Assembly (NCBI GenBank): GCA_964628195.1 | Contig: CAZVPF010000002.1 | Location: 100,078-164,077 of the forward strand | Length of the DNA: 64,000 nt | Direction of reading: 5' to 3' | From: an uncultured Pirellulales bacterium | GTDB lineage: Bacteria > Planctomycetota > Phycisphaerae > Sedimentisphaerales > Anaerohalosphaeraceae | In this document: piece by piece, positions 4,552-31,273 of the stretch | How positions within the stretch are numbered: the stretch's first letter is position 1 | Layout: each line of letters opens with the position of its first letter | Program-made: the position numbers and the translations under genes | The notes under the pieces: model-generated | Told to the model about the DNA's origin: nothing | The model's input: only the letters and a program-made list of their open reading frames with translations | The model's database searches: none

Positions 4552-4572
4552 TAAATGAAAGGAAGGTGTATT

Positions 4573-5397: not shown

Positions 5398-5406
5398 AGA
5401 AAAGGT

Positions 5407-6714: not shown

Positions 6715-6732
6715 TTAGTTTATGGAGTTTTT

Positions 6733-7293: not shown

Positions 7294-7335
7294 ACGCCTT
7301 TTCGATCACAAATTTTGTATTTCTCCCGGTATTTC

Positions 7336-7363
7336 TTGCAAATAGCCTTCAAAGTGCTACAAT
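7336..7363 (+). promoter_or_regulatory. candidate sigma70-type promoter (TTGCAA - 16 nt - TACAAT)
   Basis: TTGCAA at 7336-7341 and TACAAT at 7358-7363 with a 16-nt spacer, about 45 nt upstream of the 7408 ATG. Based on sequence pattern only. Confidence 0.3.
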
Positions 7364-7407
7364 ACGCTTCATTCCTTAGGGAAATGGGTTACCTTTTCTT
7401 CCTATAG

Positions 7408-8130: not shown

Positions 8131-8153
8131 AACCCTTTCGCCCTGTTGCTTGC

Positions 8154-10493
8154 TCATTGCTCGTGGTAAAGAAGTTTCCATGAAATCACACCGTAAGGAT
8201 GTGCTGGCCCTTCCATATACACCGGAAAATAATTGTCGGATTCATGCCGCTGACGGTGCAGTATGCGTAGTTTGTGCATTCCTTCTTCAAGCGGAAGCTC
8301 TTTGCAGATAAGGTGATGGTTGTTGACAATATGCGCAGCAACCCTGCCGTCAATAAATATTTTTGTTTCCATCAGCTTGTTGTTCGAGTAGACCTGGAAA
8401 TTATATAGACCGCTCTTTTCGATTTTTACATAACCGTTCGCCTCGAAAGCCTGCTGAGGGTTCTTAACGGCATAGGATATCTGGGTGGTGCTGCCCACAG
8501 TGGTTTCGGCATCGGCCTTGAGCTTCGAAAAGTCCGGCAATTCGTCGAACACTCCCTCGACAGCCGACACTTTCAATCCCTTTTTAAGCTCACCTGCGGT
8601 CCTGGCGGCCTTTATCAGTTCATCGTCGCTTACCTTCCGGAAAAGGCATGAAACAACATCACTTTTTTCGTTACCTTTATAAGCGACGGCCTTGAACAGG
8701 CGGCTGTCGGAAACAGTAACAGGCCCGGAATATTTTTGCGAGTTCTTATCCGGCTCTGAACCGTCGGTTGTGAAGTAAATAACTTCCGCTTGTGAAATAG
8801 CAGCAAGCCTGACCTCCTGTGAACCAATGAAAGTGCCTCCGAATGGTTCAATAACCGGCGTCCATGCCTTTTTCGAGCCTGAACCGGGTTTTTCCACGAC
8901 CAGAACTCCCCACGGATCGAGCCCCGGCACTTTAAGCAGGTTCCCCCCGCCCCGCGCCAGAACATGCGTTTCCACAAGCAGCGAAAAGTCATTGCAAGCC
9001 TGCGACTGTTCATGAACTGCGGCATTATAAGGTTTCGGGGTCAGTAAAGTTACCTTTAAGTCATCGTTCCCTGAGAAAAACCGCTTCGGGTTGAGTATGA
9101 CCCCCGCTGGTCTCATGTCATCCGACCAGTTCACAAGGTGTATCACAACAGGCGCATCCGCTTTACCCGGCTGCGCCCGAACGACGGCGGTAACTTCGAT
9201 GTCCTGGTGAACAATAACAGGTGCTTTCTCGGCAGTTTCATGTATACCGTGCCCGTATGCCCCGACTATTTCATAATCGTCGAAGTACCATGCCGCGCCT
9301 CGAATAAAACCGCTCAGGTCCGCATATTGCGAGGGCTTCCCGTAATATCTTTTAGAGCCTTCCGGTGTCGAATAAAGGTAATTATCCCAGGGCATCATAG
9401 CCTGTCCCCCGCAAGCGTATACAAACGCGATAAACCTCCGAATATTCGGCTCATCCTCCGGAATGCGAAGAGTATGCCCCTTTATCATCGTAAAAACCTG
9501 TGCCTTTTTCAGCTCGATTATCTCAAGAAGTGTCTTATATATCTTTTCAGGCTGCAGATTGCGGACATTGAATTCCCCGATCCCGTAATCATACACATTC
9601 CGGTGATAGAAAGGCCATCGACCGCTGCCGTTGTTCATCGAAAGCGTAACTTTGCCGTATTTTTCTTCGAGCCTCTTTCTTACCTCCTCCATACAGTTCT
9701 GCACCGCCTCCTCCTGGAACCGTATAAACTGTTTTTTAAGCCCGTAGTTCCATTTCTTGTCCTGCATTGAGTGATCGCCCACCGCAGCCCCGAGTTTTTC
9801 CAGGTGTCCCTTTAAATTGAAACTTTCCAGGGTCTCGATTCCCATCGTTTTCAGTTCGGCTTCGGAAAACTTTTTCCGCCGAAGATAATCCGTAAACCCC
9901 TCAACGCAGTATTCGCAAAAACAACTGCCCCAGTTATAAGACACTGCATTCATATCCGGGTCGTCGATCTGTACGGAATTAACACCCATATCGAACCGCT
10001 GCGAAAGGATATTCACAAAACTGTCAACGGTTTTCGGGTGACTTGCGCATGTCGAGGTCGGCTGCGGCGTCCAAATACGCATCCAAGGCGGTGTTATGGG
10101 ATTACCCTTGAGGTCTTTAACCGTGTTGTCAAGGTTGTCATTGCTCGCGTCGATGGAGCATATCGCGTTGCCGAACTTACAGCCCTGCTCGCTGATTTTT
10201 TCTAAAAAGCTGCTGTCGGAGTCTTTCTTTACTTCCAGCCTGTCAAAATGAAAATAAGTCCACTCCAGCCGTGTTACATGAAAAGCCTTAACCATTTTCA
10301 CGGTGTCATAGGGGTCATCCGGACCTGATGGGTGAATGTGAAGGGATCGCATTAATACATCGCTGTATTTGGGTGCGCCTTGCGGCATGACTCTCTTTTG
10401 AGCGATCTCATGCACTTTCGACAATGTTTCGCCAAAGCACAAATAACCTGGAACAAGAAGGAACAATACATTTAACAACACTGACTTTCTCAT
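8154..10493 (-). CDS. secreted carbohydrate-active-like protein with CHB_HEX_C-type Fn3-like and PA14-like C-terminal domains
   Basis: Signal peptide MRKSVLLNVLFLLVPGYLCFG. It has a chitobiase/hexosaminidase C-terminal-type motif (VIYFTTDGSEPDKNSQKYSGPVTVSDSRLFKAVAY). The C-terminal region is PA14-like (GLKVSAVEGVF...GYVKIEKSGLYNFQVYSNN). I could not assign the ~520-aa N-terminal domain. ATG 10493 is preceded by GAGAGG, whereas the ORF-track start at 10523 is TTG. Confidence 0.6.
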   Translation of the reverse strand: MRKSVLLNVLFLLVPGYLCFGETLSKVHEIAQKRVMPQGAPKYSDVLMRSLHIHPSGPDDPYDTVKMVKAFHVTRLEWTYFHFDRLEVKKDSDSSFLEKISEQGCKFGNAICSIDASNDNLDNTVKDLKGNPITPPWMRIWTPQPTSTCASHPKTVDSFVNILSQRFDMGVNSVQIDDPDMNAVSYNWGSCFCEYCVEGFTDYLRRKKFSEAELKTMGIETLESFNLKGHLEKLGAAVGDHSMQDKKWNYGLKKQFIRFQEEAVQNCMEEVRKRLEEKYGKVTLSMNNGSGRWPFYHRNVYDYGIGEFNVRNLQPEKIYKTLLEIIELKKAQVFTMIKGHTLRIPEDEPNIRRFIAFVYACGGQAMMPWDNYLYSTPEGSKRYYGKPSQYADLSGFIRGAAWYFDDYEIVGAYGHGIHETAEKAPVIVHQDIEVTAVVRAQPGKADAPVVIHLVNWSDDMRPAGVILNPKRFFSGNDDLKVTLLTPKPYNAAVHEQSQACNDFSLLVETHVLARGGGNLLKVPGLDPWGVLVVEKPGSGSKKAWTPVIEPFGGTFIGSQEVRLAAISQAEVIYFTTDGSEPDKNSQKYSGPVTVSDSRLFKAVAYKGNEKSDVVSCLFRKVSDDELIKAARTAGELKKGLKVSAVEGVFDELPDFSKLKADAETTVGSTTQISYAVKNPQQAFEANGYVKIEKSGLYNFQVYSNNKLMETKIFIDGRVAAHIVNNHHLICKELPLEEGMHKLRILHRQRHESDNYFPVYMEGPAHPYGVISWKLLYHEQ

Positions 10494-17695: not shown

Positions 17696-19114
17696 ATGAA
17701 AGTGATGCTAATCTCACAGCCGGGCAAAGAAACCATCAAAAGCGATCTGGCAAAGCTGATCCATGAAGAAAGAGGTGTGAACCCGCCCATCGGGCTTCTT
17801 TACGTTGCAGCTTCCATAAAACAATGGTCCGGGCATGAAGTAAAAGTAGTTGACGCAGCAGTGGATAATTTGTCGGTCGAACAGATTAAGAGCGAAGTTG
17901 AATCTTACTGGCCGGATGTGGTTGGTATGACGCTTACCACTTTCTCTTTGATTGAAAGTATAAGCATAGCCAAAGCAATTAAACAGTTAAACAGCGACAT
18001 AAAGATCATTGCAGGGGGCATACATATTTATATTTACCCCGAGGAAACGCTGAAACTGGGGTGTTTCGATTACGGCGTGCTCGGCGAAGCAGAAAATATA
18101 ATCTGCCCCTTGCTTGACTGCATAGAGAAAGGCATTGAGCCCTCGCAAGTAAAAGGTGTTGTATACAAAGCAGATGGCGGTGTTCATTACACAGGCGAGC
18201 CCAGACTGCTTGAAGACCTAGACAGCATACCTTTTCCGGATCGGACTATGCTGCCTTACAAAAAGTACAATTCGATAGTTGCAAAGCATAACCCTGTAAG
18301 TATTATGATTACCAGCCGGGGTTGTCCGTACGGCTGCATATTCTGCGATAGGCCGCATTTAGGCAAAAGGTTTCGCATGCGTTCTGCGGAAAACGTTGTT
18401 GACGAGTTCGAGGAATGCTACAAATTAGGAATCGGGGAGATTCTGGTGTATGATGACACTTTTACACTGAATTCTCAACGGGTGATTGACATCTGCGAAG
18501 GTCTGGTCGATAGGGGGATTAATATTTCATGGGGAATAAGAGCAAGGGTGGACACTGTAAACGAAAAGATGATAAAGGCTCTTAAAAAAGCCGGCTGTGT
18601 CAGGGTGAACTACGGTGTTGAATCCGGCAGCCCGGATATCTTAAAAACTCTTAACAAGGGGATAACCCTTGAACAGGTTGAAAAGGCCTTTGCAATGACC
18701 CGAAAGTTTGGAATAGACACACTTGCTTATTTCATGATTGGCTGCCCCGGAGACACACTTGAAACGATCGAACGTACTCAGGAGATTGCCAAAAAGATTA
18801 AGCCTTCATACGCGCACTTTACAATTTTGATGCCTTTCCCTGCTACCAAAATATACACCGATGCCGTTGATAACAAAATTATCAGCAGTGATGTTTGGAG
18901 GGAATTTGCAGAGAGCCCTCAAAGTGATTTTGAGATACCGGTTTATGAAGAAAGTTTCAAACGGGAGGAACTAATAGACCTGCTCACAAAATGTAATAAA
19001 TCTTTCTACCTGAGGCCGACCTTCGTAATTCGAGAATTATTCAAAAAAAAGCAGTTCGACCAGGTTTTCAAAGAGATAAAGGTTGCCTGGCGTCTTTTAT
19101 TCAAGGGAAAATAA
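17696..19114 (+). CDS. B12-binding-domain radical SAM enzyme (class B)
   Basis: The N-terminus is a Rossmann-like cobalamin-binding region (PPIGLLYVAASIK...VVGMT...IIAGGIH). It is followed by the radical SAM cluster motif SRGCPYGCIFC. Confidence 0.9.
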   Translation: MKVMLISQPGKETIKSDLAKLIHEERGVNPPIGLLYVAASIKQWSGHEVKVVDAAVDNLSVEQIKSEVESYWPDVVGMTLTTFSLIESISIAKAIKQLNSDIKIIAGGIHIYIYPEETLKLGCFDYGVLGEAENIICPLLDCIEKGIEPSQVKGVVYKADGGVHYTGEPRLLEDLDSIPFPDRTMLPYKKYNSIVAKHNPVSIMITSRGCPYGCIFCDRPHLGKRFRMRSAENVVDEFEECYKLGIGEILVYDDTFTLNSQRVIDICEGLVDRGINISWGIRARVDTVNEKMIKALKKAGCVRVNYGVESGSPDILKTLNKGITLEQVEKAFAMTRKFGIDTLAYFMIGCPGDTLETIERTQEIAKKIKPSYAHFTILMPFPATKIYTDAVDNKIISSDVWREFAESPQSDFEIPVYEESFKREELIDLLTKCNKSFYLRPTFVIRELFKKKQFDQVFKEIKVAWRLLFKGK

Positions 19115-19117: not shown

Positions 19118-19696
19118 ATGTCCGAAAAAGTCAGGGATGGAGCTCTAAGTGGATTGCTGAGAACCTTAAGATTTAGAGAAGTTGTTCCACACATTAAGGG
19201 CAGAAGAATACTGGACATCGGCTGTGACCAGGGCTATATCATACCGCATCTTCCTGATGACATCGAATACATAGGCATAGATCAGGATGAGCATATGCTT
19301 GGCAAGGCAAGAATAAAATATCCGGATCACATTTTTTACAAAATCGAAATAAATGCAGATACTGTCGGAACAGTTGAACTCGGGACTTTTGATACTATAC
19401 TTATGGTTGCGGTAATAGAACATATGGACCAGCCGTTTGAGATACTGACAGGATTAAGCAGCTTCCTGAATGTAAACGGAAGGATAATCATAACTTCACC
19501 TGCAGAAAAAGGCCACGGTTTACTGAGCGGTTTGAGCTGTTTGGGCCTGACAAGAAATGACAAAGATGAACATGAATCATATATTGATAATGCAATGATG
19601 TCTGGATTTATTGCGGAAAGCAGCCTCGAAGGAATCTTGCATAAAACATTTGAATTTGGTTTGAATCAGTTATGGGTTTTGAAAAAGAATAACTAA
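19118..19696 (+). CDS. class I SAM-dependent methyltransferase
   Basis: Motif I ILDIGCDQG, followed by YIGIDQDEHML and ILMVAVIEHM. Confidence 0.8.
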   Translation: MSEKVRDGALSGLLRTLRFREVVPHIKGRRILDIGCDQGYIIPHLPDDIEYIGIDQDEHMLGKARIKYPDHIFYKIEINADTVGTVELGTFDTILMVAVIEHMDQPFEILTGLSSFLNVNGRIIITSPAEKGHGLLSGLSCLGLTRNDKDEHESYIDNAMMSGFIAESSLEGILHKTFEFGLNQLWVLKKNN

Positions 19697-19730: not shown

Positions 19731-20774
19731 ATGTTTTATATAGCTAAATCAAATCACAATATTTATACCGGCTTTTCAAATTACGAAGAATTCAACCAGC
19801 AAGACAGAAAAATTCGCGCAGAGTCAGAGTTAGAAAAGTGGGGACAAGAGGCTGATATTTTCAGAAAATATCGTCTAAAATGGAAAAAAGCCGCTGAAGA
19901 AGATTTTCTGCCTGAGCATCCTCTAAATGTGGACATTGAGCTTTCCGATATTTGCAACCTGAGATGCAAGATGTGTGCGCAGGGCATGGGAACAGTTCGA
20001 GGAGCGGGTTTTATGAGTAATGATATTGTTTGTAATATCATTGACCAATGTGCCCAAACAGGTGTTTATTCGATTAAGTTCAATTGGCGAGGTGAGGCTA
20101 CGCTAAATCCATTCCTGCCCGAAGCGATCAGCTATGCAAAGAAAAAGGGTATTCTTGAAGTGCAGATCAACACCAACGGACTTCCTTCACAAAAAGATAT
20201 TATCATTGAATGCGCTGAGAATGGGCTTGACAGGGTCATTTTCTCGGTTGACGGGTTCTCAAAACAGACCTATGAAAGTATCCGAATAAACGGCAGTTAT
20301 GAGCGGCTGCTTGAAAATATTCACAATCTTATTGACTGGAAAAAAAATTCTGCAGGTTCAAAGCCCCATGTAAGGGTTCAAATGGTACGTACCAAACAAA
20401 ATGCACATGAAGTGGAAGATTTTATCGAATACTGGCAGCAGCTGGTTGACGATGTGCGGATAAGTGATGTTATGGATCGCGGGCAAGGCGGAGATCTCAC
20501 CGTGGCAGACCAGGTCGTTACGGGAAGACGAAGGTGTCCACAACCTTTCCAGAGACTTACGATCGGCAGGGACTGCAGGGTTAGCCCCTGCTGCGCAGAC
20601 TGGGACCAGGAATTTATTCTTGGCGATATTCGTCAAAACACATTGATGGAGATGTGGCAGTGTGAGATGATCAATGATTTACGCGAAAAACTCAGAAATA
20701 TACAGCATCACAAGATTAAAATTTGCAGAAGCTGTCCTGTTAAAGAAAGTTACATTTGGCGAAAAATAAAGTAA
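19731..20774 (+). CDS. radical SAM / SPASM-domain enzyme
   Basis: CX3CX2C motif DICNLRCKMC. The C-terminal region is Cys-rich (RRRCPQPF...VSPCCADW...KICRSCP), as in SPASM/twitch auxiliary-cluster domains. Confidence 0.85.
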   Translation: MFYIAKSNHNIYTGFSNYEEFNQQDRKIRAESELEKWGQEADIFRKYRLKWKKAAEEDFLPEHPLNVDIELSDICNLRCKMCAQGMGTVRGAGFMSNDIVCNIIDQCAQTGVYSIKFNWRGEATLNPFLPEAISYAKKKGILEVQINTNGLPSQKDIIIECAENGLDRVIFSVDGFSKQTYESIRINGSYERLLENIHNLIDWKKNSAGSKPHVRVQMVRTKQNAHEVEDFIEYWQQLVDDVRISDVMDRGQGGDLTVADQVVTGRRRCPQPFQRLTIGRDCRVSPCCADWDQEFILGDIRQNTLMEMWQCEMINDLREKLRNIQHHKIKICRSCPVKESYIWRKIK

Positions 20775-23700
20775 AAATAATAGCCGAGATTGCTAATGCT
20801 CACCAGGGCAATCCTGAGTTGGCTTTGGAGTTAGCACGAGCAAGCATCGAGGCCGGTGCAGATGCTGTGAAGTTTCAGGTATATTTCGCTGAAGAGCTTT
20901 TGGTCGGCACGCATAGCCGTTTCGAACATTTCAAAAATCAGTCTTTTAGTGAAGATGACTGGGACAAAATTTTTGAAAAGGTATGCAAGTTTGGCTCAGA
21001 AGTGTATGCGGATGTTTTTGGAGCAAAAGCGATTGCTGTCGCTGCAAAATACGACCTGGATGGGTTGAAAATACATTCCTCTGATTTGACCAACACCAGC
21101 CTTCTCAATAAGGCGGCAAAGTATAAAAGAAAATTGTTTTTGGCTGTTGGGGGCAGCACAATTCTGGAAATTAAATACGCACTTGATCGGTTGGCCAATG
21201 CGGGCTGTTCCAGCCGGATTGTTCTAATGCATGGATTTCAGGCTTATCCCACCAAGGTCGAGCATGCAGCACTTTGCAGGCTCAAAATGCTTAAAGAATA
21301 CTTCGGAGATTCTGTTTCGCTCGGCTATTCGGATCATGCCGACGCGGAGACTGATTTTTCACTGTTTCTGCCGTTAATCTCGCTTCCATTCGAAGTTCGG
21401 TACATCGAAAAGCATGTTACGCTTGACCGTGCTTCCAGGGGGGTCGATTACTATTCTTCTTATGAGCCGGATGAGCTTGCAAATTTTATTGAATGTGTCA
21501 GGGTGGCTGAGAAAGCTATAGGTGATAAGCCTTTATGTTTTTCACAGTCCGAAAAAGTTTACAGGAAAACGGTAAAAAAACAGTGGGTCGCCGCCCGTGA
21601 CATGCAAAAAGGTGACGTTATAAATGAGTCGGACTTGGTCATGCTCCGTACCGAGGACTCTGTGAACGGCGCCGCTTATGAAAGTCTTATAGGCAGCAAA
21701 CTGGTTTGCGATGTCGCAAAAGAGCAGGTTATTTCCAGAAATGATATCAAAAACAGAATTTTAGCGGTAGTGGTAGCTCGTTCGGATTCGAGCAGGCTTC
21801 CCGGAAAGGCCGTCTGTCCGATCAACGGTGAGCCGGCCATAAGCCACTTGTTAAACCGCCTCGAAAGGGCCAAGGATAAAGGCTTTCTGGACACCATTGC
21901 ATTTTGCACCACAACAGAGCCCTCTGACGATAAACTTGTGACTATAGCCTCGAAGCACTCTTGTTTTGTGTACAGGGGTTCGGTCGAAGATGTGTTGGCA
22001 CGCATGATGCTGGCAATAGATGATCACCATGATCACAACATAGTGCTTCGCGTTACCGGCGACGACCTGTTGATTGATCCTGATTATCTGCATAAAACAA
22101 TTGAACATCACCTGAAAAGCAATGCACATTACACCGATGCAAAGCAGTTGCCAAGTGGAACGGAAGTTGAGGTTTTCGATTCTGAAATTCTCAAGCTTAT
22201 TTATGAATTATCACATGACAGCAGCGGTTCGGAATATTTGACAAATTACATAGTAAGTAACGCCGACCAGTTTCACCTGGCGAGTCTGCCTGTTCCAGGC
22301 AGGCATGCTAAAAACTACCGGTTGACCCTCGACACGAAACAGGACTACGAGGTCATAAAAAATATTCTGGAATATTTTGAATCGATCGGCCTGAAGTATG
22401 ATTACACACTGGATGACATTTGCGAGTATTTTGAGAATTACCCTAAGGCACAAGCCGCTAATCGAACCGTCAGGCAAAAAACAACGCCGTTGACAGTGGA
22501 TACGAGGATTAACTGGGGAAATTACACCCGTAGTCCGCTGGTCAGCGTATATATCGTGAACCATAACTACGGGAGCTATATAAAACAAGCCATCGATTCA
22601 ACGCTTAATCAAAAGTTCAGGGATTTTGAGGTAATTATTATTGACGATGGCTCGACCGATGATTCGAGGAAGGTCATTGAATGCTATCGGAATAACCCTC
22701 GGGTTTCGGTCGTTTACCAGGAAAATAAGGGCCTGAATGTAACCTGCAATATTGCCTTGAAGCTTTCAAAGGGAAAATACATCATGCGTCTCGACGCGGA
22801 TGATTACCTGGATGAAAACGCATTGCTTGTAATGGTCGAGAGGCTCGAACGACAGGAAAATGCGGCGATAATATTTCCGGATTATTATATTGTCGACCGG
22901 GACGGTAATATTCTTTCTCTCGAAAGAAGGCACGACTTCAGTCAAGTGGAACTCCTTGATCAGCCTGCCCATGGCGCATGTTCGTTGATAAGGAAATCCT
23001 GTCTGCTCGAAGCGGGTGGTTATAACGAGAAATATAATTGCCAGGATGGTTATGACCTCTGGTTTAAAATGACCAGGGATTATAGAGTCACAAATGTAAA
23101 TCTTCCGCTATTCTATTATCGCCGCCACGATAAAAACCTCACTTTGAAAGAGGACCGCCTTTTGTTCACCAGGCATGAACTTATAAAGGAGCACACAGCC
23201 GAATACAATATAAATAACAAAAAACACCTTTGTATTCTTCCAATCCGTGCTTTTCCCGATGGGAATTCACTTGCTGTCAGGCCTTTTGCAGGCTCGAGTC
23301 TTCTTGACTTAACGCTTGCGCAGATTCGGGAAAGTGAGAATGTAACTCAAACGGTAGTTACAAGCCCTGACAACAAAGTCCTCGATATTGCAGGAAAATA
23401 TGACTCAGACTTGGTTTTGACACTGGACCAAAGGCCGGTTGATTTGAGCGGATATAATACCCGTATAGAACAAACGGTGAATTATTTGCTTGAAAGGTAT
23501 TTTGCAGACATTGAATTTGACACGATAACGATTGTCAACTACGAGTACCCTTTTAGAAAGCCGATCTATATAGATAAGGCAATAAACACTCTCTATCTTT
23601 ATAACGTTGACGCTGTCATAGCAGTTGAACAGAAAAATGCGAATTATTATCAGCATTACGGCAATGGCCTCGTTCCCTTTAAGACAAACACGGAACTCAA

Positions 23701-23893
23701 TCTGGAAAGAGAGTTTATTTATGAAGAAGCTGGAGGAATTCACTGCATACGGTTTGATTCCTATCAGCGATACGGATCAATGCTGAGTGGCAAAATCGGA
23801 CATATAGTTATGGACCGTCTGAGCGTTAGAAAAGCCGAGTGTGAAATTGACTTTGAGATGCTTGAAATGTTATTTAAAAAGAGCGTTAAATGA
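20756..23893 (+). CDS. four-domain fusion: NeuB-family sugar-acid synthase (with SAF) + SpsF/PseF-like cytidylyltransferase + GT2 glycosyltransferase + NeuA-like (degenerate) cytidylyltransferase domain
   Basis: aa 5-330: IIAEIANAHQG...GADAVKFQ...LGYSDH plus a SAF-like tail. aa 334-560: ILAVVVARSDSSRLPGK...VTGDDLLIDP. aa 594-800: VSVYIVNHNY...IIIDDGSTDDS...RLDADD. aa 824-1040 is NeuA-like and ends ECEIDFEMLEMLF. TTG start, 19 nt overlapping the upstream gene; one uninterrupted ORF. Confidence 0.8.
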   Translation: MAKNKVKIIAEIANAHQGNPELALELARASIEAGADAVKFQVYFAEELLVGTHSRFEHFKNQSFSEDDWDKIFEKVCKFGSEVYADVFGAKAIAVAAKYDLDGLKIHSSDLTNTSLLNKAAKYKRKLFLAVGGSTILEIKYALDRLANAGCSSRIVLMHGFQAYPTKVEHAALCRLKMLKEYFGDSVSLGYSDHADAETDFSLFLPLISLPFEVRYIEKHVTLDRASRGVDYYSSYEPDELANFIECVRVAEKAIGDKPLCFSQSEKVYRKTVKKQWVAARDMQKGDVINESDLVMLRTEDSVNGAAYESLIGSKLVCDVAKEQVISRNDIKNRILAVVVARSDSSRLPGKAVCPINGEPAISHLLNRLERAKDKGFLDTIAFCTTTEPSDDKLVTIASKHSCFVYRGSVEDVLARMMLAIDDHHDHNIVLRVTGDDLLIDPDYLHKTIEHHLKSNAHYTDAKQLPSGTEVEVFDSEILKLIYELSHDSSGSEYLTNYIVSNADQFHLASLPVPGRHAKNYRLTLDTKQDYEVIKNILEYFESIGLKYDYTLDDICEYFENYPKAQAANRTVRQKTTPLTVDTRINWGNYTRSPLVSVYIVNHNYGSYIKQAIDSTLNQKFRDFEVIIIDDGSTDDSRKVIECYRNNPRVSVVYQENKGLNVTCNIALKLSKGKYIMRLDADDYLDENALLVMVERLERQENAAIIFPDYYIVDRDGNILSLERRHDFSQVELLDQPAHGACSLIRKSCLLEAGGYNEKYNCQDGYDLWFKMTRDYRVTNVNLPLFYYRRHDKNLTLKEDRLLFTRHELIKEHTAEYNINNKKHLCILPIRAFPDGNSLAVRPFAGSSLLDLTLAQIRESENVTQTVVTSPDNKVLDIAGKYDSDLVLTLDQRPVDLSGYNTRIEQTVNYLLERYFADIEFDTITIVNYEYPFRKPIYIDKAINTLYLYNVDAVIAVEQKNANYYQHYGNGLVPFKTNTELNLEREFIYEEAGGIHCIRFDSYQRYGSMLSGKIGHIVMDRLSVRKAECEIDFEMLEMLFKKSVK

Positions 23894-24903
23894 ACTGTTT
23901 TAAGGGAAAATACGGTCCTTATATTATTGCCGAGATAGGCGGCAATCATGAAGGAGATTTTGAGTATGCAAAACGGCTGACAGAGCTTGCCGTAAGGTCC
24001 GGTGCCGATGCGGTTAAATATCAGTTATACACCGGCGATTCCCTTGTCAACAGGCTTGAGGATTTGGATCGCAACAAACATTTTAAAAAATTTCAGTTGA
24101 GAGACGAGCAGTATATCGAACTTGCTGAGATTTGCAGCTCCTTTGGCGTCACGTTTATGGCTTCAGTATGGAACATCGATGCTTTTGATTTTATCGATCC
24201 TTACATGAAAGTATATAAGATCGGGTCGGGTGACTTGACCGCTTACAACGTTATTAAACGCACGGTCGAAACAGGAAAGCCGATAATTATGTCCACTGGC
24301 CTTTCCACAATGACTGAAGTTCTCGAAACTGTTAAGTTTATTACTGGGCTTGATAAAAGCTATATCACAGACAGGAAACTGGCACTGATGCAGTGTTCGG
24401 CTATGTATCCTATACCGGATGAAGATGCAAATTTGAATGTTATGCTCTCATTGAGAGAAAAGACTTCTCTGCCTGTAGGCTATTCCGATCACACTTTAGG
24501 AACTGATGCACTTGAGACGGCTGCTGCGATGGGGGCTGAAATCCTTGAGATGCATTTTACAGACACCAGGCAGCACAAAACTTTCAGGGACCATAAGATC
24601 GCATTAACAGCCCCTGAGATAGAAAACTTGATTGAAAAGATTAAAAAAATATATTTGCTCCAGGGAAACTACGATAAAAAGCCGGTAACTTCCGAAATTC
24701 AGGCAGGTCATGTCATTTCTTTTCGGCGTGGGGTTTATCCGCTGACAGATTTACCTGCGGGCCATAAGATTGATAAAACTGACCTTGTGACTTTAAGGCC
24801 TTGTCACGGGATCGGAGCAAATCACTTTTATGAAATTGTAGGCAAAACTTTGAAAATAGATGTAAAAAAGCTTCAGCTTTTAGGATGGAATATGTTTGAT
24901 TAA
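23890..24903 (+). CDS. NeuB-family nonulosonic-acid synthase (NeuB/PseI/LegI-like) with SAF domain
   Basis: Canonical YIIAEIGGNHEGDFEYAKRL...GADAVKYQ...VGYSDHTLG motifs and a C-terminal SAF-like region. ATGA overlap with the upstream fusion gene. Confidence 0.9.
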   Translation: MNCFKGKYGPYIIAEIGGNHEGDFEYAKRLTELAVRSGADAVKYQLYTGDSLVNRLEDLDRNKHFKKFQLRDEQYIELAEICSSFGVTFMASVWNIDAFDFIDPYMKVYKIGSGDLTAYNVIKRTVETGKPIIMSTGLSTMTEVLETVKFITGLDKSYITDRKLALMQCSAMYPIPDEDANLNVMLSLREKTSLPVGYSDHTLGTDALETAAAMGAEILEMHFTDTRQHKTFRDHKIALTAPEIENLIEKIKKIYLLQGNYDKKPVTSEIQAGHVISFRRGVYPLTDLPAGHKIDKTDLVTLRPCHGIGANHFYEIVGKTLKIDVKKLQLLGWNMFD

Positions 24904-24927: not shown

Positions 24928-25971
24928 ATGAAATGCCTCGACGAACTGATTAGTATTTCCGAATCATTTTATGAAAAGTGCGACAGCTTAGTCCAGAAGC
25001 ATCCATGGGCCGTATGTATCGCAATGCACGAGTATGCGAGAAATTTATATCCAGCGGACCCTTATATACCTTTTTCATCGGGACAAAGCTCTACCGAAAG
25101 AGTTTATCAGGTGACAGTCAACTTGATTGATTTTTTAAATAAGACTGCTGTGATTGGAAATTATGAAACGAGAGCGTATACTGATATCATTGATGCTGAA
25201 GTAAAAGAGAAGACCGGTGATGTATACGGTAGTTTTTGGGAAACTTTCTCATACGAAGATCTTACAGAAAATGCAATCAATATTTTAAAAGACCGATGGA
25301 TAAAAAATGGATTTGATTTAAAACTGATTGAGGGAAAAAAAGCCATCGATATTGGTTGCGGATCAGGACGATATACTTTCGCCCTGAGAAAGCTGGGCTG
25401 TAAACATGTAACAGGGGTTGACTACGGAGACCGGGGCCTGGAGGTTGCGAAAAAGATTATTAAGCAAAGTGGGATTGACAATATAGACTTTGAAAAAGCG
25501 AATATTCTGGATCTTCCCTTCGAAAATGCAGCTTTTGATTTTGTATTTTGCCACGGAGTTCTTCATCATACCGAAGATATGGAAAAAGGACTGTCCGAAA
25601 TGATCCGTGTTGCCGCACCCGGGGCAACAATATGGCTGTATATATACGGCGATGGCGGTATATTCTGGCATGCCCGCAAACGAATGCCTCAGGTTATGAA
25701 GAAAATACCTCAGCCTTACACAATGAAAGTTCTCAATTTGATCGGTATGCCGTCAAATCGCTTTATATTCGCCGACAACTGGTATGTTCCTATTGAAAGA
25801 CATACCACCGATAAGCAGGCAAGGGACATTCTGAAAAAGTTGGGAATAAAAAAGATCGAAAGAAAAGTTCATGGTCGCCCAACCGACCTCGATTATCTTT
25901 CTATGAATGGGGGTGAAGAAGGCAAAATTATGTGGGGCGATGGTGAGCTAAGTTATTTTTTGGAAAAATAA
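24928..25971 (+). CDS. class I SAM-dependent methyltransferase with ~130-aa N-terminal extension
   Basis: Motif I AIDIGCGSGRYT, VTGVDYGDRGLEVAKK and FDFVFCHGVLHHTED. Confidence 0.8.
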   Translation: MKCLDELISISESFYEKCDSLVQKHPWAVCIAMHEYARNLYPADPYIPFSSGQSSTERVYQVTVNLIDFLNKTAVIGNYETRAYTDIIDAEVKEKTGDVYGSFWETFSYEDLTENAINILKDRWIKNGFDLKLIEGKKAIDIGCGSGRYTFALRKLGCKHVTGVDYGDRGLEVAKKIIKQSGIDNIDFEKANILDLPFENAAFDFVFCHGVLHHTEDMEKGLSEMIRVAAPGATIWLYIYGDGGIFWHARKRMPQVMKKIPQPYTMKVLNLIGMPSNRFIFADNWYVPIERHTTDKQARDILKKLGIKKIERKVHGRPTDLDYLSMNGGEEGKIMWGDGELSYFLEK

Positions 25972-25976: not shown

Positions 25977-27050
25977 ATGCCGGAACAAATGACACAGAAT
26001 AAAATATCTGATTTCGGGTTTAAGGTTTTCCAAATAGAAATCAACAGTAGTTGCAACATGCAATGTTCCTTTTGCGCTTATCCTTTGCGTTCGGTGCCGA
26101 AAATGAACATGGATTTGGAGCAGATAAAACACATTATTGACCAAGCCGCCGAAGACGGTTCATTAAGATTTGTTGCTTTTCAGCATTATGGTGAGCCCCT
26201 GCTTCACAAGAGCCTCTTTGAAGCTATCGACTACGCCCGTGAAAAAGGCGTCAAATCCCAGGTTATCACAAATTGCCTTCTTTTGACAGATGATATTGTT
26301 GACAAATTGTTGACTCATTCGCCGGATATTCTGCGCCTCTCATTTCATACAACTGATCAAGAGCTTTATCAAAACACAAGAGGTTCAAATTTGCCTTTTC
26401 ATGAGTATCGTAACAGGATAGAGCGTTGTGCTGTTAAAATATTGACGCAGAGAAATAACATCAAAGAATGCCGGATTGATATAGCTTGCGCCCCTCGAAT
26501 AAAATCAGTAACTAAAAAAATAAAACAAAAATTCTTCAATCAAAATCCTGGTGTAATTATTACTAAACGCATTGAAGATATTGAGGGCTCTGTTCGATCA
26601 TTTGCTGCTGATATTGCAGCCCGGGCATGTTTGACTTTTGATGGCGACCAGTTTAAAAGAAATGTTAGCGATTACAAAAAAAGCTGCAAATCAGCCAGTG
26701 TGTTATATAAATTCAATGATATTATGTCGTTAACAGTGAAAAGACATATTGACGGCAGACGGATGTTTCATAACATACCTGTACAATATGGAAAGTGCAG
26801 TACCAATACAATCGGGATATTGCCGGACGGGAGAATAACACTTTGTTGCCTGGACTGCGACGGTTGGACCTCGATCGGCAACGCGTTTGAAGATAAAATT
26901 ATTAACCTTTTAAGGCAAAATAGCGACCTGATAAGTCAGATTCGTAAAGGACCACGAATCCCGTTCGAGCCTTGTCAGCGATGCCAGGGTTACTCAAAAA
27001 GACCAGCTTCCTTTGCTCACGATTTTTTAAAAAGAATTCATTTACGATGA
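25977..27050 (+). CDS. radical SAM enzyme with C-terminal Cys-rich (SPASM/twitch-like) region
   Basis: CX3CX2C motif NSSCNMQCSFC. C-terminal Cys-rich stretches: KCSTN...ITLCCLDCDGW...FEPCQRCQGY. Confidence 0.8.
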   Translation: MPEQMTQNKISDFGFKVFQIEINSSCNMQCSFCAYPLRSVPKMNMDLEQIKHIIDQAAEDGSLRFVAFQHYGEPLLHKSLFEAIDYAREKGVKSQVITNCLLLTDDIVDKLLTHSPDILRLSFHTTDQELYQNTRGSNLPFHEYRNRIERCAVKILTQRNNIKECRIDIACAPRIKSVTKKIKQKFFNQNPGVIITKRIEDIEGSVRSFAADIAARACLTFDGDQFKRNVSDYKKSCKSASVLYKFNDIMSLTVKRHIDGRRMFHNIPVQYGKCSTNTIGILPDGRITLCCLDCDGWTSIGNAFEDKIINLLRQNSDLISQIRKGPRIPFEPCQRCQGYSKRPASFAHDFLKRIHLR

Positions 27051-27100: not shown

Positions 27101-28087
27101 ATGTCAGTTTTCTTTCACATCGGCATGGGCAAAGCCGGGTCAACTTATTTGCAGCAGCAGGTCTTTCCTAATCTCAAAGGGATAACTTATGTCGATCATT
27201 TCCGATATGACAATCCAGTCAGCAGTATTTTGCTCAAACTGTATTATGAGCAAAACCCATGGAAGTCGAATTCGACAGAAGACAAAGAGAAAGCGAATTT
27301 ATTTTTAACTTCTGTTGAGAACAAGCTTTTCAGCTGGGAAAGCATTGTTGGAAACCCGTACGCTAATTTTCATAATCATTTTCTGCTTGCAGATGCGCTC
27401 AAGGAAATTTGCCCTGAGGGGAAGATTATACTTATAATTAGAAAGCAGGACGATTATATTCATTCTCAGTATATGCAGGCTGTTCAAATGGGTTCGGCAT
27501 TTAGCATACGTTATTTTATGAATTACAGCAGCGGTAATTTCGGCACATACACCCCGCCGCCCTGGAAGAAGGCAAATCTTGACGTAAGAATATTAAACTA
27601 TATGAATTTTCTTGACACTTACATTAAGAGATTTGGTAAAGAGAATGTCTTGGTTCTGCCATTTGAACTGATGAAAGAGAATCCGAAAACATTTATTAAA
27701 AAAATTGAAGCATTTACCGGCAGTACCTATAGTGAAGAAAGCTCACAGAAGTTATACGGCATACATAATAAAAGTTATTCTCTGCTTTCATATTATATCG
27801 CAATTATTACTAACGGAATAACCGACCCAACATGTCCTTCTGTGATAAGGTTTGTCAGGAACATCCTGTCTAAGCTGTTTTCAATATGTACTCAATGTTC
27901 CGGCAGAAAGAAGTCTTCTTTTGGCCTTCGTCATGTTCTTCAAAACGGTCTCGATAGAGTTTTTTATATCAGGCCCAATCTTTTAAGCTCCGAACAGCGA
28001 AAGGCAATACTGTCTTTTCATAAAGAATCCAATAAACAGTTGGATGCTTTATATGGTCTTGAACTCAAGAAATACGGTTATTACTGA
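27101..28087 (+). CDS. sulfotransferase-like protein
   Basis: N-terminal 5'-PSB-like loop FFHIGMGKAGSTYLQ and a 3'-PB-like LIIRKQDDYIHSQY, matching PAPS-dependent sulfotransferase motifs. Motif-level evidence only. Confidence 0.55.
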   Translation: MSVFFHIGMGKAGSTYLQQQVFPNLKGITYVDHFRYDNPVSSILLKLYYEQNPWKSNSTEDKEKANLFLTSVENKLFSWESIVGNPYANFHNHFLLADALKEICPEGKIILIIRKQDDYIHSQYMQAVQMGSAFSIRYFMNYSSGNFGTYTPPPWKKANLDVRILNYMNFLDTYIKRFGKENVLVLPFELMKENPKTFIKKIEAFTGSTYSEESSQKLYGIHNKSYSLLSYYIAIITNGITDPTCPSVIRFVRNILSKLFSICTQCSGRKKSSFGLRHVLQNGLDRVFYIRPNLLSSEQRKAILSFHKESNKQLDALYGLELKKYGYY

Positions 28088-28097: not shown

Positions 28098-29945
28098 ATG
28101 TGCGGTTTTACGGGTATAGTTTACTCCGATTCATCCCGGACCATCGACCCTGACACCTACACTCGGTTGACGGAGATTCTTTCTCATCGTGGACCGGACA
28201 ATCTGGGCTGTTTCAGGGATGATAGAATCGACTTGATACACCATCGCCTTTCTATTATTGACCCGACCGACCAGGCCAATCAGCCAATGAAGGACCCGAA
28301 TACAGGAAATGTCGTAGTTTTTAACGGCGAAATATATAACTATAAAGAACTTAAGTCTCAGCATAATGACATTCACTGGCATACAAATTCTGACACAGAG
28401 GTTATACTTAAGTTATACCAACGACTGGGTAAAAGTTTTGTTAATAAGCTTAATGGGATTTTTGCTTTTGCAATTTATGATAATGTGCAAAAATGTGTTT
28501 TACTGTATCGCGACCGTTTCGGGATAAAACCCCTGCATTATATTAACACACAATCTGGGTTCGCGTTTTCTTCCGAAATCAAACCGCTGCTTCAGCTTAT
28601 TCGGCCTGAATATGACCGAACTGTTATTTTTGATTACCTTGAGTATGGACGCTTGGCACATGACCAGCGGACCTTCTTTAGAGGTGTCTGCAGTCTCAAA
28701 CCGGCCCATTATATGAAGTATGACTTTGAAAAAGGAAGTATCTCCACAGTCAGGTATTGGGACATAAAAGACGACAACTCTTTGAGTAACTTATCGAATG
28801 AGCAGATAGTGGAAAGGACGTATACGGAACTTCAAAAAGCTATACGCCTTAATATGGTAAGTGATGTCGAAGTGGCAGTCAGTTTAAGCAGTGGGGCCGA
28901 TTCAACGCTTATTCTGAGACTTGCTCAGCAGCAAACTGCACAAATAAAGGCTTTCACATTCGGCTTTGAAGAGGATGCCTACGACGAAGTGAGCCGTATA
29001 AAAGACCAAGATAGCCTAAAGGGTATCGAATTGCATCCGGTCTATCTCAGGCCCGGTCAAATGCTGGAGCTGCTGAAGCAGGCCGTCTACTACTTTGAAA
29101 CACCTTTAGGAGGACTAGGCACTTTATCGGCATACAATATGATGAAAGAGGTCCGGCGAAAGGGAATCAAGGTGATGTTGGCTGGTGAGGGTGCGGATGA
29201 GATATTCGGCGGATATCAATATTATTTCCCTGCATACTTTAAAGACCTGGAGTACGACAATGAGTTGCTGTATAGAGAAGTGGAAGATTATGCCAAAGCA
29301 CACGGGATCAAAATGAAACCTTTTTGCCAGGCTTATAATGAGTTGATCAAAACAGTCAACTCAAAAACTGTGCTGGCGCCTGATGGCACCGGTTCTTCAA
29401 ACAGCCATGCAAGTTCGGATTTAAGGGCTGAGTTTAAGCAAGACGCTTTAGTCTCTGGTCCGGCCATATTTAAAAGCTGTCTTATTTGTGAAATGTACCG
29501 GGACCTTACAGAAAAGAAGCTGCCGAAACTGTTGCATTTTCAGGACCGAGCAGGAATGGCCGGCGGCATTGAAACAAGGGTTCCTTATCTGGACCATAAC
29601 CTTGTAGAGTTTATTTATGCTTTGGGTAACCGTTGCAAAATATATCGGGGACAAAGCAAGTATTTATTGAAGGCCGTGCTTAAGCGTTATTTTGATTATA
29701 CAGAACCTAAAAAGACAAAACATTATGTGGCAACCCCTCAACGGGAATGGCTGAAAACTACGTCTCTTGCAAAGGAGATACTGGAAACATTGCGCTTTGG
29801 CTGGCTTGTTGAAGAGGGACTTATAGACTTTAAGTTGTTCGAAAGGGATTATAACGCATATATATCTCAGCCGGAACTTGGGAATTCCTTTTTTGTATGG
29901 AAGCTTATCAACCTTGAGTATCTTTTGGGACAAAAATGGAATTAG
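28098..29945 (+). CDS. asparagine synthase (glutamine-hydrolysing) family amidotransferase, glycan-locus paralog
   Basis: N-terminal nucleophile MCGFTGIV, Ntn-amidotransferase body, PP-loop VSLSSGADST, and a 615-aa length. Confidence 0.9.
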   Translation: MCGFTGIVYSDSSRTIDPDTYTRLTEILSHRGPDNLGCFRDDRIDLIHHRLSIIDPTDQANQPMKDPNTGNVVVFNGEIYNYKELKSQHNDIHWHTNSDTEVILKLYQRLGKSFVNKLNGIFAFAIYDNVQKCVLLYRDRFGIKPLHYINTQSGFAFSSEIKPLLQLIRPEYDRTVIFDYLEYGRLAHDQRTFFRGVCSLKPAHYMKYDFEKGSISTVRYWDIKDDNSLSNLSNEQIVERTYTELQKAIRLNMVSDVEVAVSLSSGADSTLILRLAQQQTAQIKAFTFGFEEDAYDEVSRIKDQDSLKGIELHPVYLRPGQMLELLKQAVYYFETPLGGLGTLSAYNMMKEVRRKGIKVMLAGEGADEIFGGYQYYFPAYFKDLEYDNELLYREVEDYAKAHGIKMKPFCQAYNELIKTVNSKTVLAPDGTGSSNSHASSDLRAEFKQDALVSGPAIFKSCLICEMYRDLTEKKLPKLLHFQDRAGMAGGIETRVPYLDHNLVEFIYALGNRCKIYRGQSKYLLKAVLKRYFDYTEPKKTKHYVATPQREWLKTTSLAKEILETLRFGWLVEEGLIDFKLFERDYNAYISQPELGNSFFVWKLINLEYLLGQKWN

Positions 29946-31273
29946 TTAAAACAGGTAATTACATAAAGGATATCGAGTCAAAACATTTTGACAAAATCAC
30001 CAAGCTGAATTTTGGAAAATTCAATGTTTGGCAAATTTACAGAAACTTTCTTATATATAGATTTATGAAAGCAAAAAACTCTTCACAAAAACCGGCTTCC
30101 AAAAGAACTGAAAGTTTGATTAGTTTCTTTTTTCAAATGTATAAAAAAAGGAAGTATCTGAAGAATAAACATATATTATATTCGACTTCTGCGAATTATG
30201 ATAAAAAGGAAGGCGAAAGACTTGCCTCAACGGTTCTTATGAGTTTAGCCAACGAGATCGGTGAGGATAAAGTTTATGTTATTGCAACTGATAAGTATGA
30301 TATTGAACAGCACGAATCCTTTCCAAAGATTGAATTTAATGACTTTACACTTAATAAAATGCGCTTTTCTCCTTTTATTTGTGTTTTTTTATTTCCCGCC
30401 ATATTCCGGCATTTCAGAGCGCTGAAAAACTTTTTAGATGTCAGTTTTTCCAAAGTTGCAATTCTGCTCGCCGGTTTTTTTGAAAAGCATCTTTATTATA
30501 ATATAATGTTGTGGATCATTAAGCCCGCAAGTCTGTTTTTTTACAGGTCTTCATATGGAAGCGAGGCGTTAATATCTGCTGCAAAGGCTCAAGGTATAAA
30601 AGTGTATGAATACCAGCACGGACAGTTGTACAAAGAGCATTATGGATATAATTTTTGCAGATCACTGCTTGGAATTAAAAACAAGATGATTCTTCCGGAC
30701 AAATTACTTTTATACGGGGAGTATTGGAAAGAAGTTTTGAAAGAAGAAGGTTTTTTCGATGATAAAGATGTGATTGTGTGTGGTCATCCGACCCTGCACG
30801 ATGCAGGCAAGATAGATTTTGATATAAATTATGAACAGATAGCGGTATTTTCCTCGCCTTATGCTGCCGAAAAGTTAATAAAATTTATCGATCGTTATAT
30901 AAATAATTCAGATTATGCCTGTGATTATCAGTGGATAATCAAATGCCATCCCCGCGAAAATAAGCAACTATGGCAGGAACTTGCTGATAAGCATCAACAA
31001 GTTCAGGTCATATCTAAAAGCACTTATGATATATTGAATTCGGTGAAAATTATTTTATCAGCTTCCCCTTCTATAATATATGAATCGACTTATTTTGGAA
31101 ATTCTGTATACGCTTTTTTTCCGGGTGTTGACCTTGATAATTCGCAAAGCTGGGCCTTTCCTGAATGTAACAGGATTGAAGAAGGCTTTCTGGGCCATTT
31201 TGAAAAAAACAAACAAGTGGATGTTTCCGAAAAATACTATAAGGGACTTGCTCTCCAACAAATATTTTCTTAA
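29936..31273 (+). CDS. hypothetical protein (possible GT-B-like transferase)
   Basis: 445-aa ORF coupled to its neighbours by a 10-nt overlap upstream. I recognised no confident family. It contains EEG (LKEEGFF) and two HP dipeptides (CGHPTL, IIKCHPRENK), reminiscent of bacterial sialyltransferase D/E-D/E-G and HP motifs. Confidence 0.5.
   Translation: MELVKTGNYIKDIESKHFDKITKLNFGKFNVWQIYRNFLIYRFMKAKNSSQKPASKRTESLISFFFQMYKKRKYLKNKHILYSTSANYDKKEGERLASTVLMSLANEIGEDKVYVIATDKYDIEQHESFPKIEFNDFTLNKMRFSPFICVFLFPAIFRHFRALKNFLDVSFSKVAILLAGFFEKHLYYNIMLWIIKPASLFFYRSSYGSEALISAAKAQGIKVYEYQHGQLYKEHYGYNFCRSLLGIKNKMILPDKLLLYGEYWKEVLKEEGFFDDKDVIVCGHPTLHDAGKIDFDINYEQIAVFSSPYAAEKLIKFIDRYINNSDYACDYQWIIKCHPRENKQLWQELADKHQQVQVISKSTYDILNSVKIILSASPSIIYESTYFGNSVYAFFPGVDLDNSQSWAFPECNRIEEGFLGHFEKNKQVDVSEKYYKGLALQQIFS

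Follow-up and report, generated by a model that had tools for sequence, protein, structure and literature searches.

Among the described systems, the spore-crust sps operon of Bacillus subtilis resembles the gene reported here: its products SpsE (NeuB-like), SpsF and SpsA (a family 2 glycosyltransferase, GT2) represent the same three families (PMC7439481) as the first three of four domains, D1 to D4, encoded by a single open reading frame (ORF) in a 64,000-nucleotide stretch of DNA from an uncultured Pirellulales bacterium (contig CAZVPF010000002.1, positions 100,078 to 164,077; the whole stretch is referred to as the window). In B. subtilis these are separate proteins and no counterpart exists for D4, a NeuA-like fold that has lost its catalytic residues (pseudo-NeuA). 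The window lacks the upstream genes of the legionaminic acid (Leg) pathway, and D1 differs from the sps synthase by another substrate pocket and by scores below the cut-offs for nonulosonic acid (NulO) synthases. SpsE (1vli), SpsA (1qg8, 1h7l) and SpsF-type proteins were all recovered as matches in our PDB and Foldseek searches.

Three proteins of Leptospira borgpetersenii JB197 are among the best structure matches to D1 (6NCS; profile E-value 2.2e-42), D2 (6OEW; 2.7e-36) and D3 (6P61; 8.2e-46), the last sharing the motifs RxDADDY and PLYxYRRH with D3. They are three separate polypeptides, known from structural genomics; 6NCS is without the SAF domain of D1 and 6P61 without D4. Our literature search found no functional study of 6NCS, 6OEW or 6P61, and the Leptospira cluster is described only as encoding multiple NulO synthases and cytidine monophosphate (CMP)-synthetases (PMC3438082). 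Escherichia coli K4 chondroitin polymerase (K4CP; 2Z86/2Z87) and Pasteurella multocida heparosan synthase 2 (PmHS2; 8VH7) each contain one GT2 domain resembling D3, the ‘LDSDD’ (DxD) of K4CP aligning with ‘LDADD’ of D3, and like the fusion protein they string several GT-A-like domains on one chain. In these soluble, two-domain polymerases, however, both GT2 domains are active and the product is a glycosaminoglycan, whereas the fusion protein has one GT2 placed between nucleotidyltransferase-fold domains. D4 has the fold of the NeuA family (Neisseria meningitidis 1EYR, Vibrio cholerae 6IFD, and 9T4Z, the PpNeuA CMP-2-keto-3-deoxynonulosonic acid (Kdn) synthetase) and keeps its R12, R71 and P108, but is without K21, N22, the P-loop Ser/Lys and D209/D211.

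Fusions as such are not new to these pathways: a NeuB-phosphatase of Leptospira interrogans and the mammalian epimerase-kinase GNE are precedents (PMC3438082), and the NCBIfam family TIGR04321 (‘spiro-SPASM’) joins an SpsF-like to a radical-SAM/SPASM domain, a likeness of the same kind to D2 and the ORF upstream of the fusion gene. None of the three unites a synthase, a cytidylyltransferase, a GT2 and a pseudo-NeuA. All four folds are known already and the architecture is present in databases under generic annotation only, the source names of full-length homologues being either ‘N-acetylneuraminate synthase family protein’ or ‘SpsE/SpsF’. In the literature we found no description of the four-domain architecture, of a GT2+pseudo-NeuA unit or of the synthase clade to which D1 belongs. 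The gene and its domains are as follows.

20756–23893, + strand: four-domain fusion gene, TTG start, 1045 codons, ORF free of stops
20756–21754, + strand: D1 (residues 1–333), NeuB-family phosphoenolpyruvate (PEP)-condensing synthase (TIM barrel) with SAF/antifreeze-like domain, from Pfam and Foldseek
21755–22510, + strand: D2 (residues 334–585), SpsF/KdsB-type cytidylyltransferase with P-loop ARSDSSRLPGKA, TGDD and LTLDTxxD, from Pfam and PDB alignments
22535–23200, + strand: D3 (residues 594–815), GT2 glycosyltransferase (GT-A fold) with DDGSTD, RLDADD (DxD), HGAC, QDG and PLFYYRxH
23213–23893, + strand: D4 (residues 820–1045 and stop codon), NeuA-family fold without catalytic residues, from the PseF model and the D4 profile

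A first-pass annotation of this DNA had proposed one uninterrupted ORF that joins four families on one chain, with domain parsing and structure prediction as checks. These were carried out here. Profile and structure searches recovered all four families, and the motifs on which the proposal was based (EIANAHQG, ARSDSSRLPGK, DDGSTDDS, RLDADD and LPIRAFPDGNSLAVRPF, as well as EIGGNHEG in the neighbouring NeuB) are all present. The AlphaFold2 model of the full-length protein, computed with 36 homologues in the alignment, has a mean predicted local distance difference test (pLDDT) of 88.6 and a predicted template modelling score (pTM) of 0.69, and its linkers are modelled confidently too. By chance, a frame would stay open over 1045 codons with a probability of approximately 1e-23 (our estimate, assuming ≈ 5% stop codons). 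The same 1045-residue protein, 100% identical, is encoded on a 51.7-kb Logan contig (SRR7048228) and on a 204-kb NCBI contig, the assemblies being independent. Full-length homologues form ≈ 75 clusters at 90% identity (1030–1055 residues, 39–61% identity, many phyla). Collinear four-domain proteins occur in Arcobacteraceae, where the gene sits on a complete chromosome (OY762960.1), and in Omnitrophota, Cloacimonadota and SAR86 genomes, and the inter-domain linkers can be aligned across the full-length homologues without large gaps. Because of the independent identical assembly and the ≈ 75 collinear homologues an artefact is excluded, and the ORF encodes a genuine single protein.

We propose that this protein is a cytoplasmic enzyme of a surface-glycan island and that it represents a conserved set of genes in its completely fused state. 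D1 would condense PEP with an aldose to a nonulosonic or related ulosonic acid, unlike the product of the neighbouring NeuB, and D2 would convert this acid to its CMP-ester. D3 would add a hexose-type sugar from a metal-bound nucleoside diphosphate (NDP) donor, most likely a uridine diphosphate (UDP)-sugar and not a CMP-acid. D4 would bind a cytidine-linked ulosonate or a related ligand and thereby link D3, the hexosyltransferase, with the ulosonic-acid branch; it might present an acceptor that carries the ulosonate, or act as a sensor or tether. Transfer from the CMP-ulosonate would more likely be the task of a separate polysialyltransferase-like ORF (29936–31273). Any channelling of intermediates along the chain would belong to the same conjecture. 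The statements on single domains are very probably right; towards the composite scheme we lean only slightly.

D1 matches Pfam NeuB over residues 28–258 (E = 7.7e-42; 143.8 bits, cut-off 22.1) and Pfam SAF over residues 278–332 (7.8e-06; 26.8 bits, cut-off 21). Foldseek searches of the PDB gave target template modelling (TM) scores of 0.77–0.82 for NeuB and PseI, of 0.77–0.83 for the matches 1xuu, 8h2c and 3g8r, and of 0.84 for 6ncs. Since D1 remains under the equivalog cut-offs for NeuB (TIGR03569, 189.2 versus 399.65 bits) and PseI (TIGR03586, 145.8 versus 340.25 bits) and has no EIGxNHxG motif, it was not filed as NeuB, PseI or LegI. For a comparison at the level of residues, 38 domains of its clade, here termed NeuB*, and 61 adjacent canonical NeuBs were aligned to N. 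meningitidis NeuB (NmNeuB), whose catalytic, PEP-binding and metal-binding residues we take to be those of the structural literature. The positions E25, K53, Q55, K129, S132, H215, E234, H236, D247 and R314 are retained in 35–38 of the 38 members; for E25, K53, K129, the metal ligands His215/His236, E234, D247 and R314 the figure is 37–38. Their equivalents in the window protein (E11, K39, K105, H194, E218, H220, D231 and R298) are invariant in its homologues. The sugar site, in turn, carries changes fixed in the clade, i.e. G27A, N29A/S, T110D, G131H, G133S/T, C182G, T183F, N184Q, I248Y, V249Y and C250S, and the adjacent canonical NeuBs form a second coherent clade with other residues at these pocket sites. 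From the retained catalytic residues together with the clade-specific pocket we predict D1 to be an active synthase that uses another substrate than the neighbouring NeuB. The motif EIANAHQG had been pointed out as atypical. It does differ from EIGGNHEG, but taking it as the mark of a degenerate synthase is rejected: it is invariant throughout the NeuB* clade, a signature of domains in which every catalytic and metal residue is kept.

D2 matches Pfam CTP_transf_3 over residues 337–537 (2.6e-26; 93.2 bits, cut-off 22.6) and, in the PDB, 6oew (1.3e-24; Foldseek target TM 0.89). Its P-loop ARSDSSRLPGKA aligns with PARxxSTRLPGK of KdsB and its TGDD with QGDE; R342, S345, R347, K351, G435–D437, D526 and D530 are invariant. 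In B. subtilis, SpsF, the type to which D2 belongs, is needed for the transfer of legionaminic acid and not for its synthesis (PMC7439481). Residues 384–558 of the fusion protein, within D2, match the N-terminal half of TIGR04321. With this set of residues D2 is an intact and credible activating enzyme, predicted to be active and to form the CMP-ester of an ulosonic acid.

The nature of D4 was much less evident from single-sequence searches. Pfam gave no match, a search of the PDB with the single sequence returned nothing (best E = 0.47, an unrelated protein), and the NCBIfam PseF model TIGR03584 aligned to residues 841–1041 (8.7e-10) with 38.6 bits, below its cut-off of 205.7. A profile of 37 D4 domains, by comparison, found the CMP-Kdn synthetase 9t4z (6.9e-25), 6ifd (8.1e-21), 1eyr (1.3e-16) and 1qwj (1.7e-15) in the PDB, and Foldseek returned CMP-sialate synthetases at target TM 0.79–0.85. 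We therefore tallied 70 D4 domains (25–46% identity) in the numbering of the N. meningitidis CMP-sialate synthetase (NmCSS), in which Lys21 is catalytic, Ser15/Lys16 belong to the P-loop and Asp209/Asp211 bind Mg. R12 is Arg in 69 of the 70 domains, R71 is Arg and P108 is Pro in all 70, and R165 is Arg or Lys in 66. K21 is replaced by Leu, Ile or Val, Lys not being among the listed residues, and N22 by Ala in 47; S15 and K16 are unconserved; the D209 position is mostly Gly, Arg or Gln, with no acidic residue in at least 67 domains, and an Asp remains at D211 in only 6. In the window protein, K21, D209 and D211 correspond to Leu, Lys and Glu. The sugar-contact positions Q104, T106, Q166, N175 and Y179 are all substituted, and newly conserved residues have appeared: T106 is now Glu in 52 domains, Q166 Leu in 64 and Q167 Glu in all 70.

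D4 was not filed as a cytidylyltransferase because the catalytic Lys and the metal-binding Asp residues are lost and the score falls below the cut-off. It is a pseudo-cytidylyltransferase, with nucleotide-contact arginines and a remodelled pocket that appear to be under selection; the earlier suggestion that the last domain is a pseudo-enzyme module is thereby supported. As its ligand we infer a cytidine nucleotide or a CMP-ulosonate. Many stand-alone GT2+pseudo-NeuA proteins (P0123, P0140, P0147, P0156 and others) carry the JGI name ‘CMP-N-acetylneuraminic acid synthetase’, probably a systematic misannotation.

How these domains are arranged elsewhere was determined with hidden Markov models of all four, applied to ORFs from 78 species loci; when each species was represented by a single genome, 331 genomes had proved to contain relatives. 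D3 and D4 are on one polypeptide of ≈ 455–470 residues in every locus examined, D4 being never free-standing and always C-terminal to a GT2. In 24 loci, including Pelagibacteraceae, Rhodospirillaceae, Nitrospira, Planctomycetota and Scalinduaceae, D1 and D2 form a separate gene of ≈ 590 residues adjoining D3D4. Another 40 loci, mostly Bacteroidota, combine D3D4 with a small SpsF-type cytidylyltransferase and one NeuB of the canonical type, NeuB* being absent. The complete four-domain fusion is present in 4 loci, in addition to some cases cut by contig ends. A Nanoarchaeia metagenome-assembled genome (MAG) has D1, D2 and D3D4 as three genes, and a Methanosarcinales MAG has D1 next to a D2D3D4 fusion. 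Hence, the GT2+pseudo-NeuA pair is the invariant unit and the four-domain fusion a minority state.

An exhaustive search of 1.84 billion representatives at 50% identity agreed with this: all four domains were present only in P0001, P0067, P0076 and P0245, each half in dozens. With D3D4 alone as query, 2,125 clusters came up at E ≤ 1e-20, a number to be read as a maximum, since some of the clusters may resemble D3D4 just in its GT2; the best 120 of these are mostly ≈ 450–480 residues long and, where named, are called ‘glycosyltransferase’ or ‘CMP-N-acetylneuraminic acid synthetase’. The one-chain architecture, which the first-pass annotation had called unusual, is thus not unique, since it is found in the ≈ 75 clusters and the same domains are far commoner as two adjacent genes; a database search for it had been suggested, and it brought up no characterised member. 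In a neighbour-joining tree of D3D4 nearly all fused forms lie in one block, with P0050 outside, while the D2D3D4 protein of the archaeon arose independently. D2 has accordingly been joined to D3D4 at least two or three times, and such repeated joining is Rosetta-stone evidence of a shared pathway.

Relatives of D3D4 were found in SAR11, SAR86, a Prochlorococcus single-cell genome, Nitrospira, a MAG of the anammox family Scalinduaceae and Bacteroidota. Some proteins depart from the general plan: P0261 (963 residues) and P0326 (899 residues) have NeuB* and cytidylyltransferase behind an N-terminal extension of ≈ 325–390 residues, and in P0346 (1174 residues) and P0363 (923 residues) the GT2 is embedded in longer multi-stretch proteins. 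A distant GT2+NeuA-like protein, WP_103041587.1 (31% identity over 88% of D3D4), is encoded on plasmid p6 of the cultured Azospirillum argentinense MTCC4035 (NZ_CP032327.1, 11995–13395) and flanked by genes for an NTP-transferase, a fused DegT aminotransferase, a GNAT protein, a methyltransferase, a short NeuB-family protein and asnB. This carrier could serve as a genetic model.

The loss of the catalytic residues from D4 allows a simpler view of the protein. NeuA enzymes dimerise through a subdomain of their own for this purpose, and D4 may descend from such a dimer as a ligand-free scaffold for structure or oligomerisation; the fusions would then reflect only co-expression, stoichiometry or operon compaction. 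The two halves remain separate genes in most genomes, so that fusion is evidently not required, and the full fusions are essentially one clade in the D3D4 tree; both facts agree with a scaffold. What the scaffold does not account for is the (near-)invariance of R12, R71 and P108 and the conserved replacements in the pocket over ≈ 70 sequences as divergent as 25–46% identity, a pattern suggesting that a binding site is maintained, nor the universal D3–D4 fusion in the loci examined. We regard a mere scaffold as unlikely, without considering it negligible.

The first-pass annotation had viewed the protein as a make-activate-attach enzyme, in which D1 makes a NulO, D2 forms the CMP-NulO and D3 transfers it; D4 may then be a donor-binding module. 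Its first two steps agree with the coupling of synthase and CMP-activation described above, while the third depends on D3. This domain matches Pfam Glycos_transf_2 over residues 597–722 (1.6e-29; 103.4 bits, cut-off 23.3). Its best PDB matches are the second GT domain of K4CP (6.4e-37), the glucuronyltransferase of that enzyme, and the Leptospira protein 6p61 (1.4e-29), with Foldseek target TM scores of 0.93 for 6p61 and 0.72 for SpsA. In 36 homologues DDGSxD (630–635), RLDADD (678–683), HGAC, QDG and PLFxYRxH are invariant. Among proteins of known structure its closest relatives are K4CP, PmHS2 and SpsA, metal-dependent NDP-sugar enzymes that bind UDP- or deoxythymidine diphosphate (dTDP)-nucleotides. 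Searches of Pfam, NCBIfam and the PDB gave no match of D3 to the sialyl- or NulO-transferase families (GT38, GT42, GT52, GT80, GT97 etc.), and this, together with the DxD motif, makes a NulO-transferase of known type less likely, leaving room for a new type. According to the B. subtilis study (PMC7439481), a DxD is usually missing from sialyltransferases, and SpsA, a DxD-containing GT2, proved not to be the transferase for CMP-legionaminic acid. D3 is therefore best predicted to be an inverting, metal- and NDP-sugar-dependent GT2, most likely using a UDP-sugar; as a user of CMP-sugars that attaches the ulosonic acid it is unlikely, given the invariant DxD, the UDP-type relatives, the missing match to sialyltransferases and the SpsA precedent. 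The window moreover encodes another candidate for the attaching step:

29936–31273, + strand: polysialyltransferase-family (GT38-like) ORF of 445 residues (Pfam PF07388, 6.8e-06; 26.3 bits, cut-off 23.3)

In this protein EEG (270–272) and KCHPRE (336–341) are invariant, although among just 3 relatives, which is all that the word-index search for homologues gave; they resemble two motifs of the bacterial sialyltransferases with GT-B fold, D/E-D/E-G and HP. A sequence search of the PDB yielded noise only, and the structure model (pLDDT 49.9, from a 3-sequence alignment) is too poor to judge the fold. A 442-residue ORF occupies the same position in the Arcobacteraceae locus. We regard the ORF as a tentative candidate for a CMP-ulosonate transferase, belonging to a family with few members, and a priori as a better one than a GT2 with DxD.

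Four domains that are linked repeatedly, by adjacency and by independent fusions, would equally be expected of a make-activate-attach enzyme, the retained cytidine-contact arginines of D4 could in principle provide donor binding, and in most loci no other candidate for a NulO transferase was found near the module. Against this stand the complete NDP-sugar and metal apparatus of D3, its UDP-sugar relatives, the lack of detectable similarity to any sialyltransferase family, the analogous case of SpsA and the PF07388-family ORF within the island itself. Attachment of the NulO by D3 is in our view clearly improbable.

Some observations nevertheless weigh against the composite scheme that we prefer. 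When homologues encoded within 9 kb of the GT2+pseudo-NeuA gene were counted in 74 loci, the PF07388-family ORF was near the module in only 2 of the 74 other loci, so that in most genomes D3D4 could still be the attaching enzyme. Two retained arginines are no proof that D4 binds a nucleotide. Finally, profile scans found no canonical NeuA encoded in the window, leaving the product of the second NeuB without an obvious activator, except for a promiscuous D2 or an enzyme encoded elsewhere.

A bolder variant would make D3D4 a new kind of enzyme, with D4 holding a CMP-ulosonic acid while D3 glycosylates it to a CMP-linked disaccharide or a glycosylated ulosonate precursor, so that the module, together with NeuB*, the SpsF-type cytidylyltransferase and the radical-SAM/SPASM protein, would make unusual, possibly chain-extended ulosonic acids. 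We consider this quite doubtful. MAGs of Magnetovibrio and one of a Magnetospirillum sp. contain relatives of the module, and unassigned CMP-activated C10 ulosonic acids were reported from Magnetospirillum gryphiswaldense (bioRxiv 10.64898/2026.04.20.719630); if the variant were true, these would be an example of the products of such a module.

The missing NeuA also invites the idea that D4 is an active, divergent cytidylyltransferase serving the neighbouring canonical NeuB, which would place two activating enzymes on one chain. The window indeed has two NeuB paralogues and no stand-alone NeuA, a few relatives (Thermodesulfovibrionales, Nanoarchaeia) keep acidic residues at the positions of D209/D211, and the JGI label mentioned above names some D3D4 proteins as CMP-N-acetylneuraminic acid synthetases. 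Yet K21 is changed to Leu, Ile or Val, the P-loop Ser/Lys are unconserved and D209/D211 are gone in the window protein and in most relatives; the TIGR03584 score is far from its cut-off, and in several related loci a canonical NeuA accompanies D3D4. An active D4 is thus very improbable. As to a frameshift or mis-assembly that fused ordinary separate genes, the domains are indeed two or three genes in most genomes, and some split cases, e.g. one Magnetovibrio MAG (L013), might themselves be sequencing frameshifts, but the identical protein in the independent Logan assembly, the ≈ 75 collinear homologues with alignable linkers, the complete-chromosome genomes with the fusion (OY762960.1) and the confidently modelled linkers leave this practically no chance.

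The fusion gene is closely embedded between two other genes:

19731–20774, + strand: radical-SAM/SPASM enzyme, upstream (Pfam Radical_SAM and SPASM)
23890–24903, + strand: NeuB paralogue with EIGGNHEG, downstream (Pfam NeuB, 1e-60)

Its 5′ end overlaps the radical-SAM/SPASM ORF by 19 nt and its 3′ end the NeuB ORF by 4 nt, and because of these overlaps the three genes look translationally coupled. The NeuB paralogue, which like D1 is below the cut-offs (TIGR03569, 248.7 versus 399.65 bits; the PseI equivalog cut-off likewise not reached), has homologues of up to 66% identity in 68 of the 74 loci and is the most conserved partner of the module. Homologues of the radical-SAM/SPASM ORF (up to 62% identity) occur in 25–26 loci; it matches the C-terminal half of TIGR04321 and has the same position in the Arcobacteraceae locus. 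D2 and this ORF hence correspond to the two halves of a family that exists in fused form, which is further evidence of linkage, although a search of the literature found no paper mentioning TIGR04321 or spiro-SPASM. Other partners are a hexapeptide acetyltransferase (29 loci) and an AsnB-like amidotransferase (14–15 loci), and in Bacteroidota NeuB and D3D4 are separated by an ORF of ≈ 380 residues that resembles methyltransferases in sequence. The gene order of the window recurs in the Arcobacteraceae locus, with radical-SAM, four-domain gene, NeuB, methyltransferase, ABC exporter, AsnB-like protein, the 442-residue ORF and acetyltransferase.

Profile scans of the 64-kb window found none of the classical upstream genes for pseudaminic acid (Pse) or Leg, i.e. 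4,6-dehydratase, aminotransferase or NeuC/LegG. In the Arcobacteraceae locus (OY762960.1, 1–8993 of the extracted locus) genes for GDP-mannose synthesis and dehydratase or epimerase genes lie upstream of the fusion; the corresponding upstream genes of Ca. Pseudothioglobus singularis (3482–8588 of its locus) encode an additional cytidylyltransferase, a HAD phosphatase, a 2-hydroxyacid dehydrogenase and an HpcH aldolase. Both sets hint at Kdn-like routes or routes with phosphorylated intermediates, not at Pse/Leg routes.

The wider surroundings in the window comprise the following features.

17696–19114, 19118–19696, 24928–25971 and 25977–27050, + strand: B12-binding radical-SAM enzyme (best NCBIfam matches HpnJ, BchE and P-/C-methyltransferase types), two methyltransferases of class I and another radical-SAM/SPASM enzyme, the second of this type
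27101–28087 and 39070–40911, + strand: two sulfotransferase genes, the second of 613 residues with two sulfotransferase stretches
52500–52572, + strand: tRNA-Lys(CTT), beside the end of the island
53355–54890 and 54865–56436, then 57758–60346, + strand: a pair of neighbouring MTTB-family (trimethylamine methyltransferase-like) genes, then an ABC transporter that includes a binding protein of the glycine-betaine type (OpuAC)

Radical and methyl chemistry is thus unusually heavy around the fusion gene for a sugar cluster, and the sulfotransferase genes suggest a sulfated surface glycan. The glycan island of ≈ 40 kb (12000–52600) has a GC content of 0.385–0.44 versus 0.47–0.51 in its flanks which, with the tRNA gene at its end, suggests a horizontally acquired or hypervariable surface-polysaccharide region. 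The MTTB and transporter genes look like a quaternary-amine demethylation locus.

Nonulosonic acids shape the surfaces of bacteria and archaea, their susceptibility to phages and their interaction with hosts; to our knowledge, most of the pathways by which environmental organisms make them are not known. The locus described here points to a large family in which a GT2 is joined to a dead CMP-sialate synthetase and which is tied genetically to ulosonic-acid synthesis, its carriers being abundant microbes of marine and engineered systems. A practical warning follows for annotation, as some automated pipelines call the pseudo-domain an active CMP-N-acetylneuraminic acid synthetase. The four-domain fusion, rare as it is, serves as Rosetta-stone evidence that four activities belong to one pathway, and its single polypeptide would be usable for reconstituting this pathway in vitro.

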